Origin: Nitrospirota bacterium
Lineage (GTDB): Bacteria; Nitrospirota; Thermodesulfovibrionia; SZUA-242
Direction of reading: 5' to 3'
Assembly (NCBI GenBank): GCA_016212095.1
Contig: JACRHH010000018.1
Coordinates: 3,126-67,125 of the forward strand
DNA length: 64,000 nt
This document shows positions 4,509-29,982 of the stretch, in pieces. Numbering within the stretch: the first letter of the stretch is position 1; each line of letters opens with the position of its first letter. Under the pieces are notes generated by a model. That model was not told the DNA's origin, did not search any database, and worked only from the letters and a program-made list of their open reading frames with translations. The position numbers and the translations under genes were made by a program.

Positions 4509-4598
4509 CGCGAACCTGTTGTGCATGAGAAAATGCCGGGAGGTTCGCGGATGGCGCAACAGCTTGATTATTGGAACATTTATTTGAAGCCGTCAAGC

Positions 4599-4794
4599 GT
4601 TGCGTCCGGTCGCAAGACCGGGCGAGGATTGAAACGCGGAAAGGATGGTATAACTTGCTGTAAGTTCACGCTACAACAGCGTGAGCGTCGCGCCCGGTCG
4701 CAAGACCGGGCGAGGATTGAAACCGGTCGTCTCTCTCCGCGCTGGTTATCAGGCACGGTCGCGCCCGGTCGCAAGACCGGGCGAGGATTGAAAC
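4599..4794 (+). CRISPR. CRISPR mini-array: three 37-bp repeats (4599-4635, 4687-4723, 4758-4794), spacers of 51 and 34 bp
   Basis: Consensus GTCGCGCCCGGTCGCAAGACCGGGCGAGGATTGAAAC with 9-bp stem/GCAA loop and ATTGAAAC 3' handle typical of type I-C; first repeat has 2 mismatches. Confidence 0.75.
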
Positions 4795-4805
4795 TGCGCG
4801 GCGGC

Positions 4806-4823
4806 GCATCGCAATGCGTCTCT
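4806..4823. repeat. Partial inverted copy of the palindromic element that is tandemly repeated at 6042-6131
   Basis: GCATCGCAATGCGTCTCT matches the reverse complement of the 30-bp unit core (GACGCATCGCAATGCGTCT). Confidence 0.3.
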
Positions 4824-5343
4824 ACCTGCACGCGGCCTGCACCGTTGAGATTGGCAGAAATAGTTGCAGTGGATGATCTGGAATCGCCAGAAACCCGAAT
4901 TGCTCATAAAATCGTCCGGCTTCGTCATCCTTTGCATCGACAAAGAGGCCGATTACGCCTGCATGTCCAGCGATAAGCGATGTCCGGTGAACCGCATCGG
5001 CAAGCAGCAGTTTGCCGTACCCTTTGCCCTGTTCCTTCCGGGATACCGCAAGACGGGCAAGACGCACCGCAGGCAGACCATGCAGCGGGTATTTCCGGGC
5101 ATAATCATCAGGAAGTTGCTCGACAGACAATTCGCAGAGCGTGAGAGTGTAGAAGCCGAGCATGGCTGGCGTGCCGGCGGTCAGCACGAATGTCCGTGAA
5201 ATACCTTTCGACGAATGCTGACGCGCGATTGTCCGGAGGAACTCGTTCAGCGCCGGAACGCCGCAGTCGAAACCGTTACGGTCATGGATGCGGTCAAGAA
5301 GGGTTATTTCCGGCAATGGTTTTATTGTGCTGACGCATGGCAT
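4822..5343 (-). CDS. GNAT-family acetyltransferase toxin (TacT-like)
   Basis: 173 aa; acetyl-CoA motif RLAVSRKEQGKGYGKLL; paired with an upstream DUF1778-type gene. Confidence 0.7.
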   Translation of the reverse strand: MPCVSTIKPLPEITLLDRIHDRNGFDCGVPALNEFLRTIARQHSSKGISRTFVLTAGTPAMLGFYTLTLCELSVEQLPDDYARKYPLHGLPAVRLARLAVSRKEQGKGYGKLLLADAVHRTSLIAGHAGVIGLFVDAKDDEAGRFYEQFGFLAIPDHPLQLFLPISTVQAACR

Positions 5344-6041: not shown

Positions 6042-6131
6042 AGACGCATTGCGATGCGTCTCTGCTGATCAAGACGCATTATGATGCGTCTCTGCTGATC
6101 AAGACGCATTATGATGCGTCTCTACTGTTCG
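6042..6131. repeat. Three tandem copies of a 30-bp unit, each containing an 8-bp-arm palindrome
   Basis: AGACGCATT(GC/AT)GATGCGTCTCTGCTGATCA x3 immediately after the yciH stop. Confidence 0.8.
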
Positions 6132-9057: not shown

Positions 9058-9336
9058 TCATCTGCTAATTGGAATAACGCCGTTTCGCATACGCAAATCG
9101 TCCAGGAGTTCTGACGGCACTTTATCGTGGGTTTTGTGGACGATTATCCGCAGGTCGCTCGAAACCCGCACAGACCAGAAGTTTTTATCCCTGGCATTGT
9201 CGGGCTTGTGGAACCGCATTCCCGAGCTGGCCGGGTTAAGTTGCAGATCGAAGGCGGTGGTCTTTGTGGCCTTCTGCTCGTCGCCGGTAAGTTTGGCGAG
9301 GCTGTCGGTGAAGGTGTCGGAGATGCGGAAGTTCAT
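9058..9336 (-). CDS. Small protein (93 aa) of unknown function; C-terminal half RelE/ParE-like by eye
   Basis: MNFRISDTFTDSLAKLTGDEQKATKTTAFDLQLNPASSGMRFHK...FWSVRVSSDLRIIVHKT; first ~43 codons duplicated at 10708-10842; no strong ribosome-binding site. Confidence 0.4.
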   Translation of the reverse strand: MNFRISDTFTDSLAKLTGDEQKATKTTAFDLQLNPASSGMRFHKPDNARDKNFWSVRVSSDLRIIVHKTHDKVPSELLDDLRMRNGVIPISR

Positions 9337-9373
9337 GTCATCGTTTTTCGAACTGATGATTTTGAAATAATTG

Positions 9374-10564: not shown

Positions 10565-10707
10565 CGAAGAATTATACCAAAATTAGCAAGTTTATAAAAC
10601 AAACATAAACCTGATAAATTTACTCAAATTAAACCCGCCTGATTTTGTTCAATAAAATGATACCCTAAAAACCTTCATCACCTCATCCCCCCCAATGAGT
10701 TATTTAC

Positions 10708-10842
10708 TCATCGGTAGAACCGCATTCCCGGACTGGCCGGGTTCAGTTGCAGATAGAAGGCGGTGGTCTTTGCGGCCTTCTGCTCGTCGCCGGTCAGTTT
10801 GACGAGGCTGTCGGTGAAGGTGTCGGAGATGCGGAAGTTCAT
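10708..10842 (-). pseudogene. Truncated paralog fragment of the 9058-9336 gene (first 44 codons then stop)
   Basis: About 130 bp nearly identical to 9199-9336 starting exactly at the ATG; followed by a relic resembling the 3' end of the methyltransferase gene. Confidence 0.45.
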
Positions 10843-10861
10843 GTGACAGCCAAGCAGCAAG

Positions 10862-13270: not shown

Positions 13271-16057
13271 TTACACCCGAAACACCTTCATAACCTCATC
13301 CCCCAAATGATTAATCACCTTCACCGCAATCCGCCCGGTTTTCGGCTTTTCAAATGGTCGCGATGTGTCGCTATTCAGCGTAGCCCAGGCGTCTTCGTTG
13401 ATCTCGGCTTTGAGAGTGGTTTTCAGCGCCTTGTACGGGTCGTTTGCTCCAAGGAAGTAGGCGTGGCGGACGAAGAAGCTTTCTTCATTATAATCTGTGT
13501 CGATGAACCAGCAGGCTATTCCTTCGGCGCCGTCGCTGCGGACTTCGCCGGTGTTGGGGTGGAACACGTCCACGCCGTTGACTTTGACCCGCACTTGTCC
13601 GTCTTCGGCATCGAGAATATCAATATCCGGCTCGCCGAAGATGACGAAGAGGTTGCCCTTGCCGGTGTTCTTGAGGTCGTCTGCCATGTGTAGGTCGGCG
13701 TTCATGCGAGCCTTGAGCACGGGGATGCGGCCAAGTTTGTTGAATTCCGACGAATGGGCGTCGTAGTTGAAGGCGCAGGTGATCAGCGCGTCGAAACCGG
13801 CGTCGCCGGCCTCGCGGGCGGCGGCCACCAGATCGGGGCGGGAGACTGTGCCGAATTCGGGGCCGATGAAGATGGCGGCGCGTTTTTCACCGCCAGCATC
13901 CGCAAAGCGTCCTTCGGCGCAGATAAGATAGCCCGGCCAAGGGGTTAGCGCTGTGAAGATGACTTTATCTTCCTTGTGCGCCTGTTGAACCCCGGCTGTC
14001 TTGAGGTTTTCCAGAATCATCTGTACGAAGTTCCGCTCCGTGCCGTAGCCTTCCTTCGGTTCCGCCACGGTGTCGATCAATTCGTCGTCCACTCCCACAG
14101 CCAGAACCCGGTGCGGCAACAGGCTCTCCACGGTGAACGGCCCGGCAACGCGAACACTTTTCTTGTCGTCGTAGGGTTTATCGTAGAGATATTCAAACTC
14201 GGCCTTGGCGGCGATGGATGCGTCGATTGCCTTTTGCCGGGCGATGCGTTGCCGCCACCAGTCGGCGTGCAGCTTCTTCGCCGCCTCCGGCCATTTTTCG
14301 TCGGCCTCGCGGGGAATTTCCCACTCCTGCCAATTTTTACCGAGTGACTGGTTAAGCTGCTGGCGCAATGGCTCCAGCGTCTGTTGGAACTTTTCCCAGA
14401 TAACGTCGATTTCGGCGTTGTTGGCGATGGATTTTAGGGTGATGTGCGGCACGCGCTCATAAACAAAGCCCTGCCGGATGTCGCCACGAGTGGGCTGGGT
14501 CGACGGCAAGGTTCGGGTGATCTCGGCTTCCTTGCGTTGGCCGTCGGGCGAGTCAGCCAGCAGATAGAAAGGGTAGCGCGCTCCCATGATCCGGGCACGG
14601 GCCAGCGCCAAAGCAACGCGCGAGGTGTCGATGGTGATCCAGCGGCGGCCCCACTGTTCAGCTACATAAGCAGTAGTGCCTGAACCGCAGGTTGGGTCGA
14701 GAACCAAGTCGCCGGGGTCGGTCGCCAAAAGAATGCAGCGCGCAATGACCTTCTGGCCTGTTTGAACAACGTATGTCTTGTCCTCGGAAAATCCGGTCAT
14801 CTTTACGTCGTTCCAATAGTTTGCAATTGGAACAACTTCGAAGTCTTTCAAAAATCGTTTGTACATGAGAGATTTGCCAATTGGCCTTAAACGCCCAGTT
14901 TTCGCAAGCTGCGTCAGGCCCTTGGCATCGGTCTTAAACGTGCCCTTGCCAGGAGAAAAAGCTACACCGTTGTAGATAAAAGACGTGACGTCGGTTCCTT
15001 GTGCTGGTCGCTGGCTGGTCAAGTTGTCACAAGCAAAAACTTTCGTCTTATCTATGTTGCCGCCGTTTCCTTCTATCTCACTAGAATTAAGCCGTCGATC
15101 TACGCCATCGCCTTCATCAAACCAAGTGTATTGGGTAGTTCCCGCTTCGCCTAGGACTTTGAGTCGAAATGGTGGTCTAAATTTGAGTGCCGCACGATCT
15201 TTGGCAAACCAAAGGATGTAATCACTAATCGAAGCAAGGCCTTCTGTCGAGGTGCTGCTCGTTTTCTCGAATGAGATTTCTGACACAAAATTCTCCTCCC
15301 CAAACACCTCATCCATCACCGCCCTCACCCGATGAACATTCTCATCCCCAATCTGCACAAAGATCGACCCGGAATCCGTCAATAAATCCCGTGCCACAGT
15401 AAGACGGTCACGCAGATAAGTCAGATACGAATGAATCCCATCCCGCCAAGTATCGCGGAACGCCTTGACCTGTTCCGGCTCGCGGGTGATGTGGCCGACG
15501 TTGCCATCCTTCACGTCGCGGCTGGTGGTGCTCCACTGAAAGTTGGAGTTGAACTTGATGCCGTAGGGCGGATCAAAGTAGATGCACTGCACCTTGCCGC
15601 GCAGACCTTCGCGCTCGGCCAGCGATGCCATGACCTGGAGGCTGTCGCCAAGGATCATGCGGTTGGCCCAATGGGCGTCGTGCTGGTAAAACTCGGTCTT
15701 GGCGCTCTCGCTTGGGAGCCCGTTGAAGTCGGCGAAGAGGTCAGGCTGAACCTGCCTGCTCTTTTCCTCACGGGTTTGACGCAACAGGTCATCGATCAAC
15801 ACCTTGGGGTGAACCTTCTCCTGAATGTAGAGAGGCGGGGCATGGACTACCAGATCAGACCAATCCTTTTCGTCCTTGCCGCGCCAGACGAGCTGTGGGT
15901 CGAGGTCGCGGTTGCGGCGTTCGTAGGCAACTCGCACCGGGCTTTTGTCCGCATCGTGCATTATCGACTGATGCTCGGCGGTGGGAATGTTCTTGCGTGT
16001 CGCGTCCTCGTGGGTGAGGGTTTCGACGGTGAGTGGGGTAATTGGTCTGTTGGCCAT
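13271..16057 (-). CDS. DNA methyltransferase, beta-class (Type III Mod-like), 928 aa
   Basis: Motif IV IYFDPPYG precedes motif I DPTCGSGTT; NRMILGDSLQVMASL resembles the Mod N-terminal region; long C-terminal extension. Confidence 0.75.
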   Translation of the reverse strand: MANRPITPLTVETLTHEDATRKNIPTAEHQSIMHDADKSPVRVAYERRNRDLDPQLVWRGKDEKDWSDLVVHAPPLYIQEKVHPKVLIDDLLRQTREEKSRQVQPDLFADFNGLPSESAKTEFYQHDAHWANRMILGDSLQVMASLAEREGLRGKVQCIYFDPPYGIKFNSNFQWSTTSRDVKDGNVGHITREPEQVKAFRDTWRDGIHSYLTYLRDRLTVARDLLTDSGSIFVQIGDENVHRVRAVMDEVFGEENFVSEISFEKTSSTSTEGLASISDYILWFAKDRAALKFRPPFRLKVLGEAGTTQYTWFDEGDGVDRRLNSSEIEGNGGNIDKTKVFACDNLTSQRPAQGTDVTSFIYNGVAFSPGKGTFKTDAKGLTQLAKTGRLRPIGKSLMYKRFLKDFEVVPIANYWNDVKMTGFSEDKTYVVQTGQKVIARCILLATDPGDLVLDPTCGSGTTAYVAEQWGRRWITIDTSRVALALARARIMGARYPFYLLADSPDGQRKEAEITRTLPSTQPTRGDIRQGFVYERVPHITLKSIANNAEIDVIWEKFQQTLEPLRQQLNQSLGKNWQEWEIPREADEKWPEAAKKLHADWWRQRIARQKAIDASIAAKAEFEYLYDKPYDDKKSVRVAGPFTVESLLPHRVLAVGVDDELIDTVAEPKEGYGTERNFVQMILENLKTAGVQQAHKEDKVIFTALTPWPGYLICAEGRFADAGGEKRAAIFIGPEFGTVSRPDLVAAAREAGDAGFDALITCAFNYDAHSSEFNKLGRIPVLKARMNADLHMADDLKNTGKGNLFVIFGEPDIDILDAEDGQVRVKVNGVDVFHPNTGEVRSDGAEGIACWFIDTDYNEESFFVRHAYFLGANDPYKALKTTLKAEINEDAWATLNSDTSRPFEKPKTGRIAVKVINHLGDEVMKVFRV

Positions 16058-21224: not shown

Positions 21225-21915
21225 CCGGATAGTTGGCAGCAAGCAGGGCCGGATCGGCATCGAAAAGCGTGTATCGCAAGGCGCGCAGCCAGTCTTCAAG
21301 AACCGTGCGGACGACGCCCCTGCTTGCAAACCGGCGGGCGGACGCCAGAACCGGCTTGTTTACAAACGCGATTCCGCCGAGTTTCTTTAATCTGCCGCTG
21401 AGTTCGATGTCTTCCATCAGCGGAATGTCGGCGAATCCGCCGATGCGCCCGAACACGCTTTTTGTCATGAACATGGCCTGATCGCCGTAAGCTATGCCGG
21501 TTGCGCGCGAGCGGGCATTTGCCCACCATGAAATGATCCGGTAGCGCGGCAGCGGCGAATCGATACGCAGGTCGAATGCACCGGCGGGCGCGCAGCCACG
21601 CTCTATGACAGCGCGCATGGCCTGAATCGCGTCAGCCGGAAGTCGGCAGTCGGCATGAAGAAAGACAAAAATATCGCCTTGCGCCGCGCCGGCTCCGGCG
21701 TTCATCTGGCCGGCCCGCCCGCGCGGCGACATAACGAGCTTCACCGGCGGCGCGATGCCGCGCGAGGAATATTCCTGAACGATTTTGCGCGTCCGGTCAA
21801 CGCTTCCGCCGTCCACAACGATGATTTCGCATACGTTGTGCCGCGATGCCTCGGCCAGTGTTTCGGCGATGATCTTCTCTTCGTTCAAAACCGGAATTAT
21901 GATCGATATATTCAC
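21214..21915 (-). CDS. Family 2 glycosyltransferase
   Basis: ISIIIPVLNEE...IIVVDGGSVDRT. Confidence 0.6.
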   Translation of the reverse strand: MNISIIIPVLNEEKIIAETLAEASRHNVCEIIVVDGGSVDRTRKIVQEYSSRGIAPPVKLVMSPRGRAGQMNAGAGAAQGDIFVFLHADCRLPADAIQAMRAVIERGCAPAGAFDLRIDSPLPRYRIISWWANARSRATGIAYGDQAMFMTKSVFGRIGGFADIPLMEDIELSGRLKKLGGIAFVNKPVLASARRFASRGVVRTVLEDWLRALRYTLFDADPALLAANYPDER

Positions 21916-22283: not shown

Positions 22284-22368
22284 TGGTGCGAGGGGGGGGA
22301 CTCGAACCCCCACGGTGTTAGCCGCCAGATCCTAAGTCTGGTGCGTCTGCCAGTTCCGCCACTCTCGC
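22284..22368 (-). tRNA. tRNA-Leu (anticodon UAG), 85 nt
   Basis: Reverse complement reads GCGAGAGTGGCGGAA...CAGACTTAGGATCTG...long variable arm...GGGGGTTCGAGTCCCCC...CTCGCACCA with anticodon loop CUUAGGA and encoded CCA. Confidence 0.85.
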
Positions 22369-22603: not shown

Positions 22604-24883
22604 ATGAACAGTGCCATGCCTGCCAATCTCGGACTAACTGGAAATGCGATAAAGGTGCTGGAGAAGCGCTATCTGAAGCGCGACAGGGAGGGGAAGGTTC
22701 AGGAAACCCCGCTCGATCTTTTCAAGCGCGTGGCGCGCACAATAGCCCGCGCCGACCTCAACTTCGACCGCCCGCTGGGCGAGGTTCAGGCCCTCGAAGA
22801 CCGCTTTTTCGATATGATTTCAACCACCGGTTTCCTGCCAAACAGCCCCACCTTGATGAACGCGGGCAGAAGGCTCGGCCAGCTTTCGGCCTGTTTTGTG
22901 CTGCCGGTTGGCGATTCGATGGATTCCATATTCGACGCGGTTAAAAACGCCGCGATGATACACAAATCCGGCGGTGGAACCGGATTCAGCTTTTCGCGGC
23001 TTCGCCCAACCGGAGACGTCGTGGGCTCGACCAAGGGCATATCGTCCGGGCCGATCTCGTTCATGACCGTTTTCGATGTGGCGACCGAGACCATCAAGCA
23101 GGGCGGAACCCGCCGCGGGGCCAACATGGGCCTTCTTCGGGTGGATCATCCGGACATAATCGACTTCATAAGGGCGAAGGACGTCAACAACCGCCTGAAT
23201 AATTTCAATATTTCCGTTGGAATCACCGAGGCATTCATGCGCGCGGTTGAGGCCGGCGAGGAATACGACATTCTTAACCCGCACGGCGGAAACGTGGTGC
23301 GCCGTGAAAGCGCGCGCAAGGTGTTCGACCTGATCGTCTCGCACGCATGGCAGAACGGCGAGCCCGGCATCGTTTTCCTCGACCGGATTAACGCGGGCAA
23401 TCCCACTCCTGCCGTAGGCGAAATCGAATCCACCAATCCGTGCGGCGAGCAGCCGCTTCTGCCCTACGAATCGTGCAATCTGGGCTCGATCAATCTTGCC
23501 CTCATGGTGAAAGACGGCGCTGTTGACTGGGACAAGCTGAAGGCCGTCACGCGCGACGCAGTGCATTTTCTGGACAACGTGATCGAGATCAACCGCTATC
23601 CGCTCAAGGAAATCGAGGAGACAACCAAGTCGAACCGCAAGATCGGCCTTGGAGTTATGGGATGGGCCGACATGCTGATACAGCTCGGCATTCCTTACAG
23701 TTCGGAATCGGCGTTCAGCCTTGCCGGAGACGTCATGAACGTTATTCAGGCAGAGGGCAAGAACGCCTCCGAGGAACTTGCCAACATGCGCGGCGATTTT
23801 CCGAATCATGAACTTAGCATATTCGCGGGCGAACGCCGCATGAGAAACGCCACGATCACTACCATCGCCCCAACCGGCACGTTATCGATAATTGCCGGAT
23901 GCTCAAGCGGCGTGGAGCCGCTGTTTGCGGTCTCGTTCGTGCGAAACGTGCTTGAGGGAACGAAGCTTGTCGAGGTGAACCCGTATTTCGAGCGAATCGC
24001 GAAGGAGCGCGGTTTCTGGTCGCGGGAGTTGATCGAGAAAATATCCGAAACCGGAAGCGTTGCCCACATGGACGAGGTTCCGGATGACGTGAAGGCCGTT
24101 TTTGTGACGGCGCACGACATATCGCCGCTTGACCATATCAAGATGCAGGCGGCGTTCCAGAAGTTCACCGACAACGCGGTGTCGAAAACGGTGAACTTCC
24201 CGAACCACGCCACAAAGGCCGACGTCGAGGAGGTCTACCGCCTGGCCTACACGCTTGGATGCAAGGGAGTGACGGTCTATCGCGACGGCTCTCGCGAGGA
24301 TCAGGTTCTTTCCACCGGTTCGTCGAGCCAAACGGCGGACAAGGAATTGGCACAGCCCGAAACAACCGCAAGCGGCAAGATCATGCCCAAAAAGCGGCCC
24401 GATGTGATGCGGGGCGAAACCCGGCTTCTTAAAACCGGCTGCGGCAATCTCTATGTGACCATAAACGCGGATGAAAACGGCAATCCGTTTGAGATATTCA
24501 CGCAGATGGGCAAGGCCGGCGGATGCGCGGCAAGCCAGGCCGAGGCCATCGGACGGCTCGTCTCGATGGCGTTCCGGTCGAACGTCGATCCGGCGGAGAT
24601 CGTCAAGCAGCTTAAGGGAATAAGCTGCCACAGCCCGGCATGGGGCGAGGGCGGGCGCATACTTTCCTGCTCCGATGCCATTGCCTCGGCAATCGAAGGT
24701 TTTTTAAACGGAAGGCGCGCGGCTCCTGTTACAAAAACGGATACGCATTCACAGTTGCCGCCGCATAACGACGGCGAGCATCAGGTCATGCGCCAGGGCG
24801 CGTGTCCGGAGTGCGGCGGCGCGGTTGAGCACGAGGGCGGCTGCGCCGTCTGCAGAAGCTGCGGCTTCACGAAATGCGCGTGA
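22604..24883 (+). CDS. nrdJ: Adenosylcobalamin-dependent (class II) ribonucleotide reductase
   Basis: 759 aa; NSPTLMNAG, FVLPVGDSMDSIF, TNPCGEQPL, C-terminal CPECGG...CAVCRSCG. Confidence 0.85.
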   Translation: MNSAMPANLGLTGNAIKVLEKRYLKRDREGKVQETPLDLFKRVARTIARADLNFDRPLGEVQALEDRFFDMISTTGFLPNSPTLMNAGRRLGQLSACFVLPVGDSMDSIFDAVKNAAMIHKSGGGTGFSFSRLRPTGDVVGSTKGISSGPISFMTVFDVATETIKQGGTRRGANMGLLRVDHPDIIDFIRAKDVNNRLNNFNISVGITEAFMRAVEAGEEYDILNPHGGNVVRRESARKVFDLIVSHAWQNGEPGIVFLDRINAGNPTPAVGEIESTNPCGEQPLLPYESCNLGSINLALMVKDGAVDWDKLKAVTRDAVHFLDNVIEINRYPLKEIEETTKSNRKIGLGVMGWADMLIQLGIPYSSESAFSLAGDVMNVIQAEGKNASEELANMRGDFPNHELSIFAGERRMRNATITTIAPTGTLSIIAGCSSGVEPLFAVSFVRNVLEGTKLVEVNPYFERIAKERGFWSRELIEKISETGSVAHMDEVPDDVKAVFVTAHDISPLDHIKMQAAFQKFTDNAVSKTVNFPNHATKADVEEVYRLAYTLGCKGVTVYRDGSREDQVLSTGSSSQTADKELAQPETTASGKIMPKKRPDVMRGETRLLKTGCGNLYVTINADENGNPFEIFTQMGKAGGCAASQAEAIGRLVSMAFRSNVDPAEIVKQLKGISCHSPAWGEGGRILSCSDAIASAIEGFLNGRRAAPVTKTDTHSQLPPHNDGEHQVMRQGACPECGGAVEHEGGCAVCRSCGFTKCA

Positions 24884-24885
24884 GA

Positions 24886-24925
24886 CCTCACCCCCGGCCC
24901 CTCTCCTGAAGGAGAGGGGAGAAAG
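24886..24925. repeat. 40-bp palindromic element, copy 1 (identical to 26067-26106)
   Basis: CCTCACCCCCGGCCCCTCTCCTGAAGGAGAGGGGAGAAAG with hairpin CCCCTCTCC-TGAA-GGAGAGGGG directly after the nrdJ stop. Confidence 0.8.
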
Positions 24926-24962
24926 GGAGGGGTGGAACCATGTAAATCACAAGGAGTATTTT

Positions 24963-25214
24963 GCAATGGCACTTGATCTGCTGAAAATACGTCCGATGGA
25001 GGAAGACGCGGCGTTTCCGCCGGGCGTAAGGATTTTTCTGAACAAGAACACTGTGGGCGGCAGGGGCGATTATCTGCTCCTGAGCCCGTTCTGCATGGAC
25101 AGAAGCGAACTTGACGCGCATGTCGATCTCATAAAGGAGAACCTCGACCGGATTCGCGAGGAGGCGTACCGTTTTTTCGACGAGGCAGCCGCCAGCGCCG
25201 GATATAACAAATAA
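24963..25214 (+). CDS. Hypothetical small protein (83 aa)
   Basis: AAGGAG ribosome-binding site before the ATG; no recognisable motif. Confidence 0.4.
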   Translation, partial: AMALDLLKIRPMEEDAAFPPGVRIFLNKNTVGGRGDYLLLSPFCMDRSELDAHVDLIKENLDRIREEAYRFFDEAAASAGYNK

Positions 25215-25317
25215 GGATGCAAATAATTTAGCTTCCGTGAAATGCTTCGCGGGGCTATAATGGTTGCACGCCATATGCGCGTTACATATCAGATATTTTC
25301 CTGACAAGGAGGAATTT

Positions 25318-26046
25318 ATGCGGTTAAGGATTATCGCGGCTTTATTTCTGTCTGTGCTTATTTCGGCTCCAGCCTTCGCGCTCGGCCCGGTCGATATCGA
25401 TCTTGAGGTTGGCGGGCTGAAATCCGGCCTCTCCGGCGAGGCAAAATACAAGGGCGACTCGATCAATCTGGAGGATGACCTCGGACTGAAGGACGACGAG
25501 ATTTCGATGTTCGTGCGCGGACGTCTGCATGTCATGATGCTTGGCAATCTCTACGCCGCATACACCCCGGTCAAGTACGAGGGCGACCATACGCTTACGA
25601 AGAGCATCACCTTCGGTGATCAGACATTCAACGCAAGCGGCAATGTTTCGTCCAAAGTTGACCTGAAGATGTACGATGTCGGCTGGACAATGACGCTTAT
25701 CGACGCCGCAGTGGCCGAGATAGAGCTTGGCGTAAACGCCAAATTTCTTGATGGAACTGTCAGCGTAAACAGCCAGACAGCCGACTTCAAGGCTCCGGTT
25801 CCGATGCTGAAGGCGGTTGTCCGCGTGAACGTGCCGCTTGTCACCGGCGAGGTCGACGCCATGGGCATCGCCTACGGCGACAATCATTTCTACGATGTAA
25901 CCGGGCAGGTGAAGGTGAGCCCGCTACCGTTTTTCTACGGCGCGGTTGGCTACCGCTACATCGACATGCAGGTGAAGGACGGAAGCAGCAAGAAGGCGAC
26001 GGTCAAGAGCCAGGGGCCGTTCGTAGCGGTCGGATTCGATTTCTAG
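25318..26046 (+). CDS. Outer-membrane beta-barrel protein (signal peptide, C-terminal Phe)
   Basis: Signal peptide with AFA cleavage context; alternating hydrophobic pattern; ends ..VAVGFDF. Confidence 0.5.
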   Translation: MRLRIIAALFLSVLISAPAFALGPVDIDLEVGGLKSGLSGEAKYKGDSINLEDDLGLKDDEISMFVRGRLHVMMLGNLYAAYTPVKYEGDHTLTKSITFGDQTFNASGNVSSKVDLKMYDVGWTMTLIDAAVAEIELGVNAKFLDGTVSVNSQTADFKAPVPMLKAVVRVNVPLVTGEVDAMGIAYGDNHFYDVTGQVKVSPLPFFYGAVGYRYIDMQVKDGSSKKATVKSQGPFVAVGFDF

Positions 26047-26066
26047 CCTCACGATTCGGTTTTCAA

Positions 26067-26106
26067 CCTCACCCCCGGCCCCTCTCCTGAAGGAGAGGGG
26101 AGAAAG
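26067..26106. repeat. 40-bp palindromic element, copy 2
   Basis: Exact 40-bp match to 24886-24925, directly after the stop of the beta-barrel gene. Confidence 0.8.
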
Positions 26107-26304
26107 AGAGGGGGAGGGAAAATGGTGGAGCAGACAACTAAAAGCGGCGCAAAACGCCGCTTTTTTCATGCCGGTTGCGGAGTGCAGAAAAAATGAATTG
26201 ACTTATTTTTTCGCCCTGTGTTAAACATACGTGCCGTTTTCTGTCCTTGGAAACGCGTTGTTTCGGGACGCGATAATCTCCGTACGAAAGAGTGCAGCCG
26301 CGAA

Positions 26305-29956: not shown

Positions 29957-29962
29957 CTTCGC

Positions 29963-29982
29963 CCTCCCCTGAAGGGGAGGGT
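29963..29982. repeat. GC-rich hairpin with TGAA loop, related to the 40-bp element
   Basis: CCCTCCCC-TGAA-GGGGAGGG between the permease and ATPase genes. Confidence 0.4.

Follow-up and report, generated by a model that had tools for sequence, protein, structure and literature searches.

The intergenic repeat BoxC reportedly goes back to Bachellier et al. in the 1990s. It was renamed PIT element by Hoyne et al. (2000) and later TM_ECO, the Escherichia coli intrastrand triplex motif of the pattern CCCTCNCCC-N3-6-GGGNGAGGG-N3-GGGNGAGGG, whose second loop reads TTA in type A and CCG in type B (Holder et al. 2015, PMC4666352). BoxC is one of the stem-loop repeat families listed for E. coli (Petrillo et al. 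2008, PMC2267715), and the same E. coli loci have been described as a G-quadruplex/hairpin switch (Kaplan et al. 2016, PMC5100583). As a single strand the E. coli motif folds in vitro into a highly stable triplex, and it is associated with elevated local variability (PMC4666352). Here, a 64,000-nt stretch of a Nitrospirota bacterium (assembly GCA_016212095.1, contig JACRHH010000018.1, positions 3,126 to 67,125; referred to below as the window) was analyzed, in which two near-identical hairpin repeats, denoted copy 1 and copy 2, bracket a small gene and an outer-membrane beta-barrel gene downstream of nrdJ, and a related hairpin lies some 4 kb further on. Copies 1 and 2 are very probably young members, and the third hairpin an old member, of the widespread BoxC/PIT/TM_ECO repeat of ~35-60 nt. 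What is new is a BoxC member in Nitrospirae with a shifted register, the family itself having been known for three decades.

The window contains exactly two occurrences of the 40-mer CCTCACCCCCGGCCCCTCTCCTGAAGGAGAGGGGAGAAAG, at 24886-24925 and 26067-26106, each on the plus strand, and 100 dinucleotide-preserving shuffles yield no match, even at up to 3 mismatches. The identical 40-bp palindromes described in the initial annotation are thus borne out. According to a repeat finder and local alignment the shared unit is slightly longer, namely a 48-nt direct repeat with one mismatch and 41 nt exact, its two occurrences being spaced 1.18 kb apart. Both copies harbor a perfect 9-bp stem, CCCCTCTCC-TGAA-GGAGAGGGG. 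Folding with Watson-Crick pairs only gives -31.8 and -35.9 kcal/mol for the RNA of the two copies with flanks, where the upstream CCTCACCCC pairs with the G-rich tail, and -9.7 kcal/mol for the 34-nt core as DNA.

Read on the minus strand, both copies have the form CCCCTCTCC-TTCA-GGAGAGGGG-CCG-GGGGTGAGG, that is, a pyrimidine block, a loop, a purine block, CCG and a G-rich third block. This architecture was compared to the class II purine motif, defined as a pyrimidine block, a loop of 3-6 nt, the complementary purine block, a 3-nt loop and a G-rich third block of equal length, with G*G.C, A*A.T or T*A.T allowed as triads of the third block and at most one mismatch. An explicit check of the minus strand yields nine of nine Watson-Crick pairs and nine of nine antiparallel purine-motif triads (7 G*G.C, 1 A*A.T and 1 T*A.T). 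A generic scan of the 64-kb window for such three-block triplexes returns only the loci of copies 1 and 2, and none in 20 shuffles. With its own tail, copy 1 can give rise to a further triplex motif on the plus strand. The arrangement of the blocks would allow single-stranded DNA to fold into an intrastrand purine-motif triplex.

The likeness to BoxC/TM_ECO extends over three 9-nt blocks in the same order, the CCG second loop of type B and the characteristic T in GGGGTGAGG. The repeats are also strictly intergenic, seem to occur in several copies per lineage and show presence/absence as well as small indels between close strains. In E. coli K-12 the hrpB-mrcB spacer carries a pair of such motifs, and the window element is identical to its type B copy at 32 of 41 aligned positions. 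The blocks, the CCG loop and the triads therefore identify the REP- or miniature inverted-repeat transposable element (MITE)-like family implied by the initial annotation as the BoxC/PIT/TM_ECO motif and not as a new one. The host differs as well, as the TM_ECO survey reported proteobacterial genomes and the present one is a Nitrospirae metagenome-assembled genome (MAG). Coordinates of the repeats and of the neighboring features are compiled in the following table.

Coordinates of the repeat copies, their blocks and adjacent features in the window
Feature	Position	Strand	Remarks
Copy 1, BoxC/triplex-motif repeat	24885..24932	+	G-rich tail GGGAGGGGTGG to ~24937, pairs with 5' block
Copy 1, third (reverse-Hoogsteen) block	24886..24894	-	GGGGTGAGG on minus strand, CCTCACCCC on plus strand; 9/9 purine-motif triads against purine block
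Copy 1, loop 2 (CCG)	24895-24897		adjoins third block
Copy 1, core hairpin	24898..24919		pyrimidine block CCCCTCTCC 24898-24906, loop TGAA 24907-24910, purine block GGAGAGGGG 24911-24919
Copy 2, same repeat	26066..26113	+	blocks 26067-26075, 26079-26087, 26092-26100; degenerate G-rich tail to ~26127
Old, eroded family member	29962..29981	+	hairpin CCCTCCCC-TGAA-GGGGAGGG; separate third block removed by a 5-nt deletion relative to sister lineages
nrdJ (B12-dependent ribonucleotide reductase)	22604..24883	+	NCBIfam NF006417, 1213.7 bits; copy 1 starts 2 nt past stop
Enclosed 82-aa open reading frame (ORF)	24966..25214	+	no Pfam/NCBIfam match; conserved and syntenic in sister lineages
Enclosed TIGR04219 outer-membrane beta-barrel gene	25318..26046	+	112.8 bits, cut-off 105; copy 2 starts 20 nt past stop
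Intrinsic terminator 3' of copy 2	26140..26167	+	AAAGCGGCGC-AAAA-GCGCCGCTTTTTT; ancestral; deleted in the 99%-identical strains L002 and L003

Other described elements resemble the window repeats less closely. HPGQ motifs (Kaplan et al. 2016, PMC5100583) represent the same E. coli loci from the G-quadruplex side, being intergenic, often arranged as opposite-strand pairs and provided with a conserved C-rich flank; the minus strand of the window element, however, has only two runs of three or more G, so that its core encodes no canonical four-run quadruplex. REP and BIME elements are likewise short, G/C-rich imperfect palindromes, intergenic, often situated just past stop codons, variable between strains and capable of folding into stable hairpins as RNA. 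Each REP family is restricted to its species and tied to RAYT transposases, whereas the BoxC core is common across phyla, and REPs lack the third mirror-repeat block. To our knowledge, no enzyme is associated with the BoxC element. With MITEs the repeat shares its small size, the absence of coding sequence and insertion polymorphism, and full-length copies end in 11-nt inverted repeats, ACCTCACCCCC ... GGGGGTGAGGT (metagenome contig L246). It is far shorter than typical MITEs, and we know of no parent transposon. A target-site duplication was sought by comparing filled and empty sites in the lineages of the window and in E. coli, but none was recognized and the boundaries are ragged. In this the repeat departs from MITEs despite the inverted ends.

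The initial annotation had proposed to check whether the bracketed two-gene segment is missing in related strains. Close homologues of the barrel gene were found in only two other lineages, one at 90% identity (L253-L255; L253 from metagenome Ga0233425) and one at 79% (L256). Both share with the window the gene order nrdJ, 82-aa gene, barrel, DsrE-like, YeeE-type transporter, FtsX, ABC and CcsA, and in both of them the triplex motif is absent after nrdJ as well as after the barrel gene. The post-nrdJ spacer measures 40 nt in L256, and the window has ~45 extra nt directly after TGAG. In the window, ~70 additional nt separate the stop codon of the barrel gene from the ancestral terminator AAAAGCGGCGC(G)AAAACGCCGCTTTTTT, which is conserved in all lineages. 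Three contigs of the window's own species (L001-L003, ~99% identity) keep both enclosed genes and both elements; one Logan contig ends inside copy 1, as assemblies do at repeats. Since the sister lineages retain the gene order without the elements, the enclosed genes are resident and the elements are the variable part. The segment is thus present in the 90%, 79% and 99% relatives and is no unit of its own, and the presence/absence polymorphism that had been anticipated concerns the elements themselves. The bracketing of two genes is incidental, and the elements are not the borders of a mobile or recombined segment.

That the elements mark the termini of a mobile unit, composite or MITE-bounded, or are recombination sites by which the two enclosed genes are moved or excised as a cassette, is accordingly extremely improbable. 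The direct repeats immediately past the two stop codons would fit such a unit, as would the nearest barrel homologues outside the lineage, which are gammaproteobacterial, stand in a different context and hint at an old transfer of the barrel gene. Against it, both sister lineages carry both genes in place without either element, all three 99%-identical contigs keep them, and in many phyla members of the element family stand alone at unrelated sites. An integron attC site or cassette was rejected as well, as inspection reveals neither RYYYAAC nor GTTRRRY core sites within or next to the elements and the enclosed genes keep their synteny in element-free relatives.

Beyond the three Nitrospirae lineages the nearest TIGR04219 barrel homologues have 46-57% identity (L257 and L258 from GCA_947259805.1 and GCA_947259935.1; L259; L260). 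They reside in a different neighborhood with YfaZ and NUDIX/MutT genes, and the hit P0011 is labelled Gammaproteobacteria. This suggests that the barrel gene was acquired by an old horizontal transfer. L257 and L258 carry three triplex motifs of their own.

The exact 40-mer was found at three more loci in metagenome Ga0233425, which also holds the 90% relative. These loci (L244, L246, L248) are situated between aspS and htrA, after metK and after a fliA-like sigma factor gene. Their tetranucleotide correlation with the window (r = 0.96, 0.92 and 0.89 for this set) exceeds that of ~250 other loci (at most 0.87) and ranks them directly behind the known relatives; on one of the Ga0233425 contigs bearing the 40-mer, metK is 97% identical to metK of a Nitrospirae MAG. 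Together these data indicate a 40-mer subfamily dispersed in this Nitrospirota group, in both orientations relative to the neighboring genes. The elements are hence indeed part of a family of short palindromic repeats that are scattered over intergenic regions and comparable to REP, as the initial annotation had supposed. Alternatively, the pair might have arisen by local duplication or by gene conversion between neighboring spacers, the repeat then not being dispersed as a family in this organism. In favor of this, the loop and 13 nt of tail, which vary between genomes, are common to both copies, and these are the only full copies in 64 kb. This origin is nevertheless very unlikely in view of the three other loci, where the same 40-mer including loop and tail occurs in contigs attributed to the same Nitrospirota group, of the exact 40-mer in unrelated high-G+C organisms and of the third, older copy 4 kb away.

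This third copy is flanked by genes for an FtsX/MacB-type permease and an ABC ATPase. In the sister lineages the corresponding spacer still displays three blocks, CCTCGCCCC-G-CCCTCCCC-TGAA-GGCGAGGG in L253 and CCCCACCC-TG-CCCTCCCC-TGAA-GGAGAGGG in L256, and the 5-nt deletion in the window has merged the first two. The hairpin, which had been noted as related and placed one base further on (29963-29982), is thereby recognized as a family member. It is found at one and the same position in the three lineages, has diverged, and is consequently considered to be old.

Copies 1 and 2 present a different picture. They are near-identical also in the loop and tail, parts that vary between genomes, and copy 2 is already decaying among 99%-identical strains: in L002 it has one loop substitution and a 9-nt tail deletion. 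Compared to window positions 26104-26180, both L002 (1840-1870) and L003 (1850-1880) have lost the adjacent terminator and contain a short duplicated AGTGCCGAAAA(AA) instead. Given this near-identity and decay, as opposed to the diverged FtsX/ABC copy, copies 1 and 2 are probably recent gains in the lineage of the window. A comparable situation is found in the E. coli hrpB-mrcB spacer, for which three allelic states were observed, namely the full pair (3536 of 5426 genomes), a collapsed single hairpin and an empty site; the empty sites have the ragged boundaries described above for the window, again without target-site duplication. From the suggestion of a recently active or recombination-prone family, the polymorphism and the fast local indels are retained and a recent gain is favored, whereas the terminator and recombined-segment readings are dropped.

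Several points weigh against the interpretation of copies 1 and 2 as recently gained, triplex-forming BoxC elements. A literal search of both strands with the published regular expression gives no match, a consequence of a one-base shift of the blocks, whose G-runs are 4+2 and not 3+3; the window has GGAGAGGGG and GGGGTGAGG in place of GGGAGAGGG and GGGTGAGGG. The window copies are single and have a degenerate G-rich tail, in contrast to the clean, inverted type A and type B pairs frequent in K-12. For the E. coli motif no triplex was detected in vivo by dimethyl sulfate footprinting (PMC4666352), and the triplex part of the mechanism therefore rests on in vitro work and inference. With respect to the age of the copies, L253 and L256 may be sisters, in which case the absence in both could amount to one loss per site. 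From gene to gene the identities among the three lineages form a mosaic (90/90/96 for the 82-aa gene, 90/79/81 for the barrel gene), and for this reason parsimony was rejected as a proof of gain. An outgroup of the same synteny was sought among the distant barrel and nrdJ homologues and was not found; the nearest other nrdJ genes (79-80% identity) are followed by unrelated genes and no motif.

A terminator or attenuator family acting after nrdJ and the barrel gene, as also considered in the initial annotation, is highly improbable. The G/C-rich, very stable hairpins do stand just past stop codons in sense orientation, and Kaplan et al. 2016 (PMC5100583) speculated about a terminator role for E. 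coli copies within operons. The stem, however, is followed by AGAAAG and not by a T-run, for which reason the elements are not regarded as intrinsic terminators; neither are they called by a consensus terminator scan. In addition, a separate canonical terminator 40 nt past copy 2 predates the element and is conserved in element-free relatives, and copies of the same lineage occur in either orientation relative to the neighboring genes. PIT elements are stated to lack promoter and terminator activity in a passage of PMC4666352 that cites Maher's laboratory. A riboswitch or leader of the 82-aa ORF was rejected because the element is absent in the relatives.

Outside Nitrospirota the repeat is found in many phyla. 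The specific pattern CCTCACCCCCGGCCCCTCTCC-N3-6-GGAGAGGGG, comprising 30 fixed bases, has exact matches in no fewer than 120 genome stretches, which represent at least 12 phyla and have unrelated flanks, in a scan of one-genome-per-species contigs. The hosts belong to Bacteroidota (Hymenobacter, Prevotella, Cyclobacteriaceae, Flavobacteriaceae and others), Planctomycetota, Chloroflexota, Acidobacteriota, alpha-, beta- and gamma-Proteobacteria, Myxococcota, Armatimonadota, Methylomirabilota, Ignavibacteria, Verrucomicrobiota/Lentisphaeria, Spirochaetota and Peribacteria. Among the genome matches listed, the loops vary between genomes and tend to be alike within one genome, and inverted pairs are common. 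The exact 40-mer is rarer, with at least nine metagenome stretches, a lower bound since the scan did not return the window's own locus. Five of these (L245, L247, L249, L251, L252) derive from high-G+C organisms and contain the 40-mer inside a longer palindromic repeat together with an inverted TTG-loop partner, which matches the type A and type B pairing reported for E. coli.

A looser pattern of 24 bases, CTCACCCC-N1-6-CCCTCTCC-N3-6-GGAGAGGG, is present on at least 120 IMG/VR viral contigs (L004-L123) whose flanks are wholly unrelated, which rules out a strain-specific element. The initial annotation had named occurrence at hundreds of unrelated sites, with no insertion polymorphism, as the finding that would speak against it; the hundreds of unrelated sites do exist, and the polymorphism exists nonetheless. 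In a BLAST search of the element against GenBank phages a single record was obtained, KX853513.1 (Virus Rctr41k, DAMO/AAA enrichment), with 89.8% identity over 49 nt at 21654-21702 and the motif in two places. As the GenBank phage search gave this one record only, the viral signal rests on the IMG/VR contigs.

The repeat may tentatively be pictured as an actively spreading ultra-small element, although this is rather unlikely; the mobilizing machinery, or a repair or replication process generating the repeat, would then be common to many phyla, and phages would perhaps be one vehicle. Such spreading is suggested by the core that is identical in at least 12 phyla, by the looser motif on the viral contigs and by the genome-specific variants of loop and tail, as well as by the two near-identical window copies that are absent at the same sites in the sister lineages and have boundaries without target-site duplication. 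Some of the viral contigs may include host DNA, and Holder et al. (PMC4666352) reported no phage association.

Signs of local expansion are seen in several places. In viral contig L026 at least three complete 39-nt units are arrayed head to tail (~1942-2111; four motif matches in ~170 nt), and partial tandem duplications of the 5' half, 26-27 nt in length, are located at 12039-12065 of L244 and 1202-1228 of L246. The array and the partial duplications suggest slippage-driven expansion. In L246 (1231-1290) the element further encodes the last ~20 codons of an alpha/beta-hydrolase-like ORF on the minus strand (1231-2244; ...SPPDPFPSFSPLLQERGRG*); by such a fusion the repeat can alter the ends of genes or extend them spuriously.

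The three copies of the window are all situated between annotated ORFs, 2-20 nt past stop codons, with the C-rich strand in mRNA sense. Judged from sequence, they might act as RNA hairpins that stabilize the 3' end or the intercistronic region of the mRNA and set the expression of nrdJ relative to the downstream genes, like some E. coli REPs. The position of the copies and the RNA folding energies given above are compatible with this function, as are the viral contigs, where a crude ORF-based count of co-directional neighbors gives 43 sense and 18 antisense elements. The ORF caller labels ~40% of the hits as genic, which is regarded as an artefact, and only co-directional counts were used. Nevertheless, a stabilizing role is distinctly unlikely and is not needed to account for the data. 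At the sites of copies 1 and 2 the sister lineages have no element, two of the lineage's three other copies run antisense to the neighboring genes, the genome sample (L124-L243) is unbiased with 19 sense versus 17 antisense, and the E. coli literature reports neither an orientation bias nor a link to gene function.

Returning to the BoxC assignment, the following course of events can be envisaged. The copies would have been gained recently in the lineage of the window by a process that leaves no target-site duplication and would persist as largely neutral or selfish DNA. When transiently single-stranded, the element might promote slippage or local errors of replication and repair. At the level of RNA it would add a very stable hairpin to the transcript running from nrdJ to the barrel gene, while neither mobilizing the enclosed genes nor terminating transcription.

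For the window itself these results are of little import, as descriptions of the repeat date back to the 1990s and the two genes between the copies are ordinary residents. The locus does provide a clean example outside Proteobacteria of a motif that is polymorphic between sister lineages and next to which sequence, including a functional terminator, is lost rapidly; this rapid loss agrees with the association with local genome instability described in the literature. Masking of the motif is advisable in annotation, since the motif gives rise to spurious ORFs such as the hydrolase ORF of L246, which runs 20 codons into the element, and to short-read assemblies broken as in L001. Of more general interest than this locus are the origin and spread of a family with a 30-nt core verbatim across phyla and a looser form on viral contigs.

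As to the surroundings of the repeats, the gene assignments of the initial annotation (nrdJ, a small hypothetical gene and a beta-barrel gene) hold in family searches, and an NCBI protein of a "Nitrospirae bacterium" MAG matches the barrel protein with 100% identity. In the tail of copy 1 (24927-24945) a Shine-Dalgarno-like GGAGGGG precedes a minimal ATG-TAA pair at 24940-24945 by 7 nt, which is probably a coincidence. Rfam at gathering thresholds assigns no family to either element and matches only CRISPR repeats and one tRNA in the window. The tRNA is a tRNA-Leu (anticodon TAG) on the minus strand at 22284-22368, just 5' of nrdJ. The three CRISPR repeats (CRISPR-DR9, 47.7-54 bits; unit ...GTCGCGCCCGGTCGCAAGACCGGGCGAGGATTGAAAC) are located at 4596-4794 with spacings of 88 and 71 nt and represent a very short or degenerate array; for the elements themselves a CRISPR-like array was rejected.

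Further repeats are found upstream in the window. Three tandem 30-nt units at 6042-6131, each containing the palindrome AGACGCATTGCGATGCGTCT, have a 46-nt inverted partner (78% complementary) at 4798-4843, 1.2 kb upstream, and could be operator sites or element ends. A 131-nt direct repeat of 94% identity (9208-9338 and 10714-10844, 1.5 kb apart) and a 30-nt repeat (10662-10691 and 13275-13304, 2.6 kb apart) probably reflect neighboring paralogous genes with similar upstream regions.

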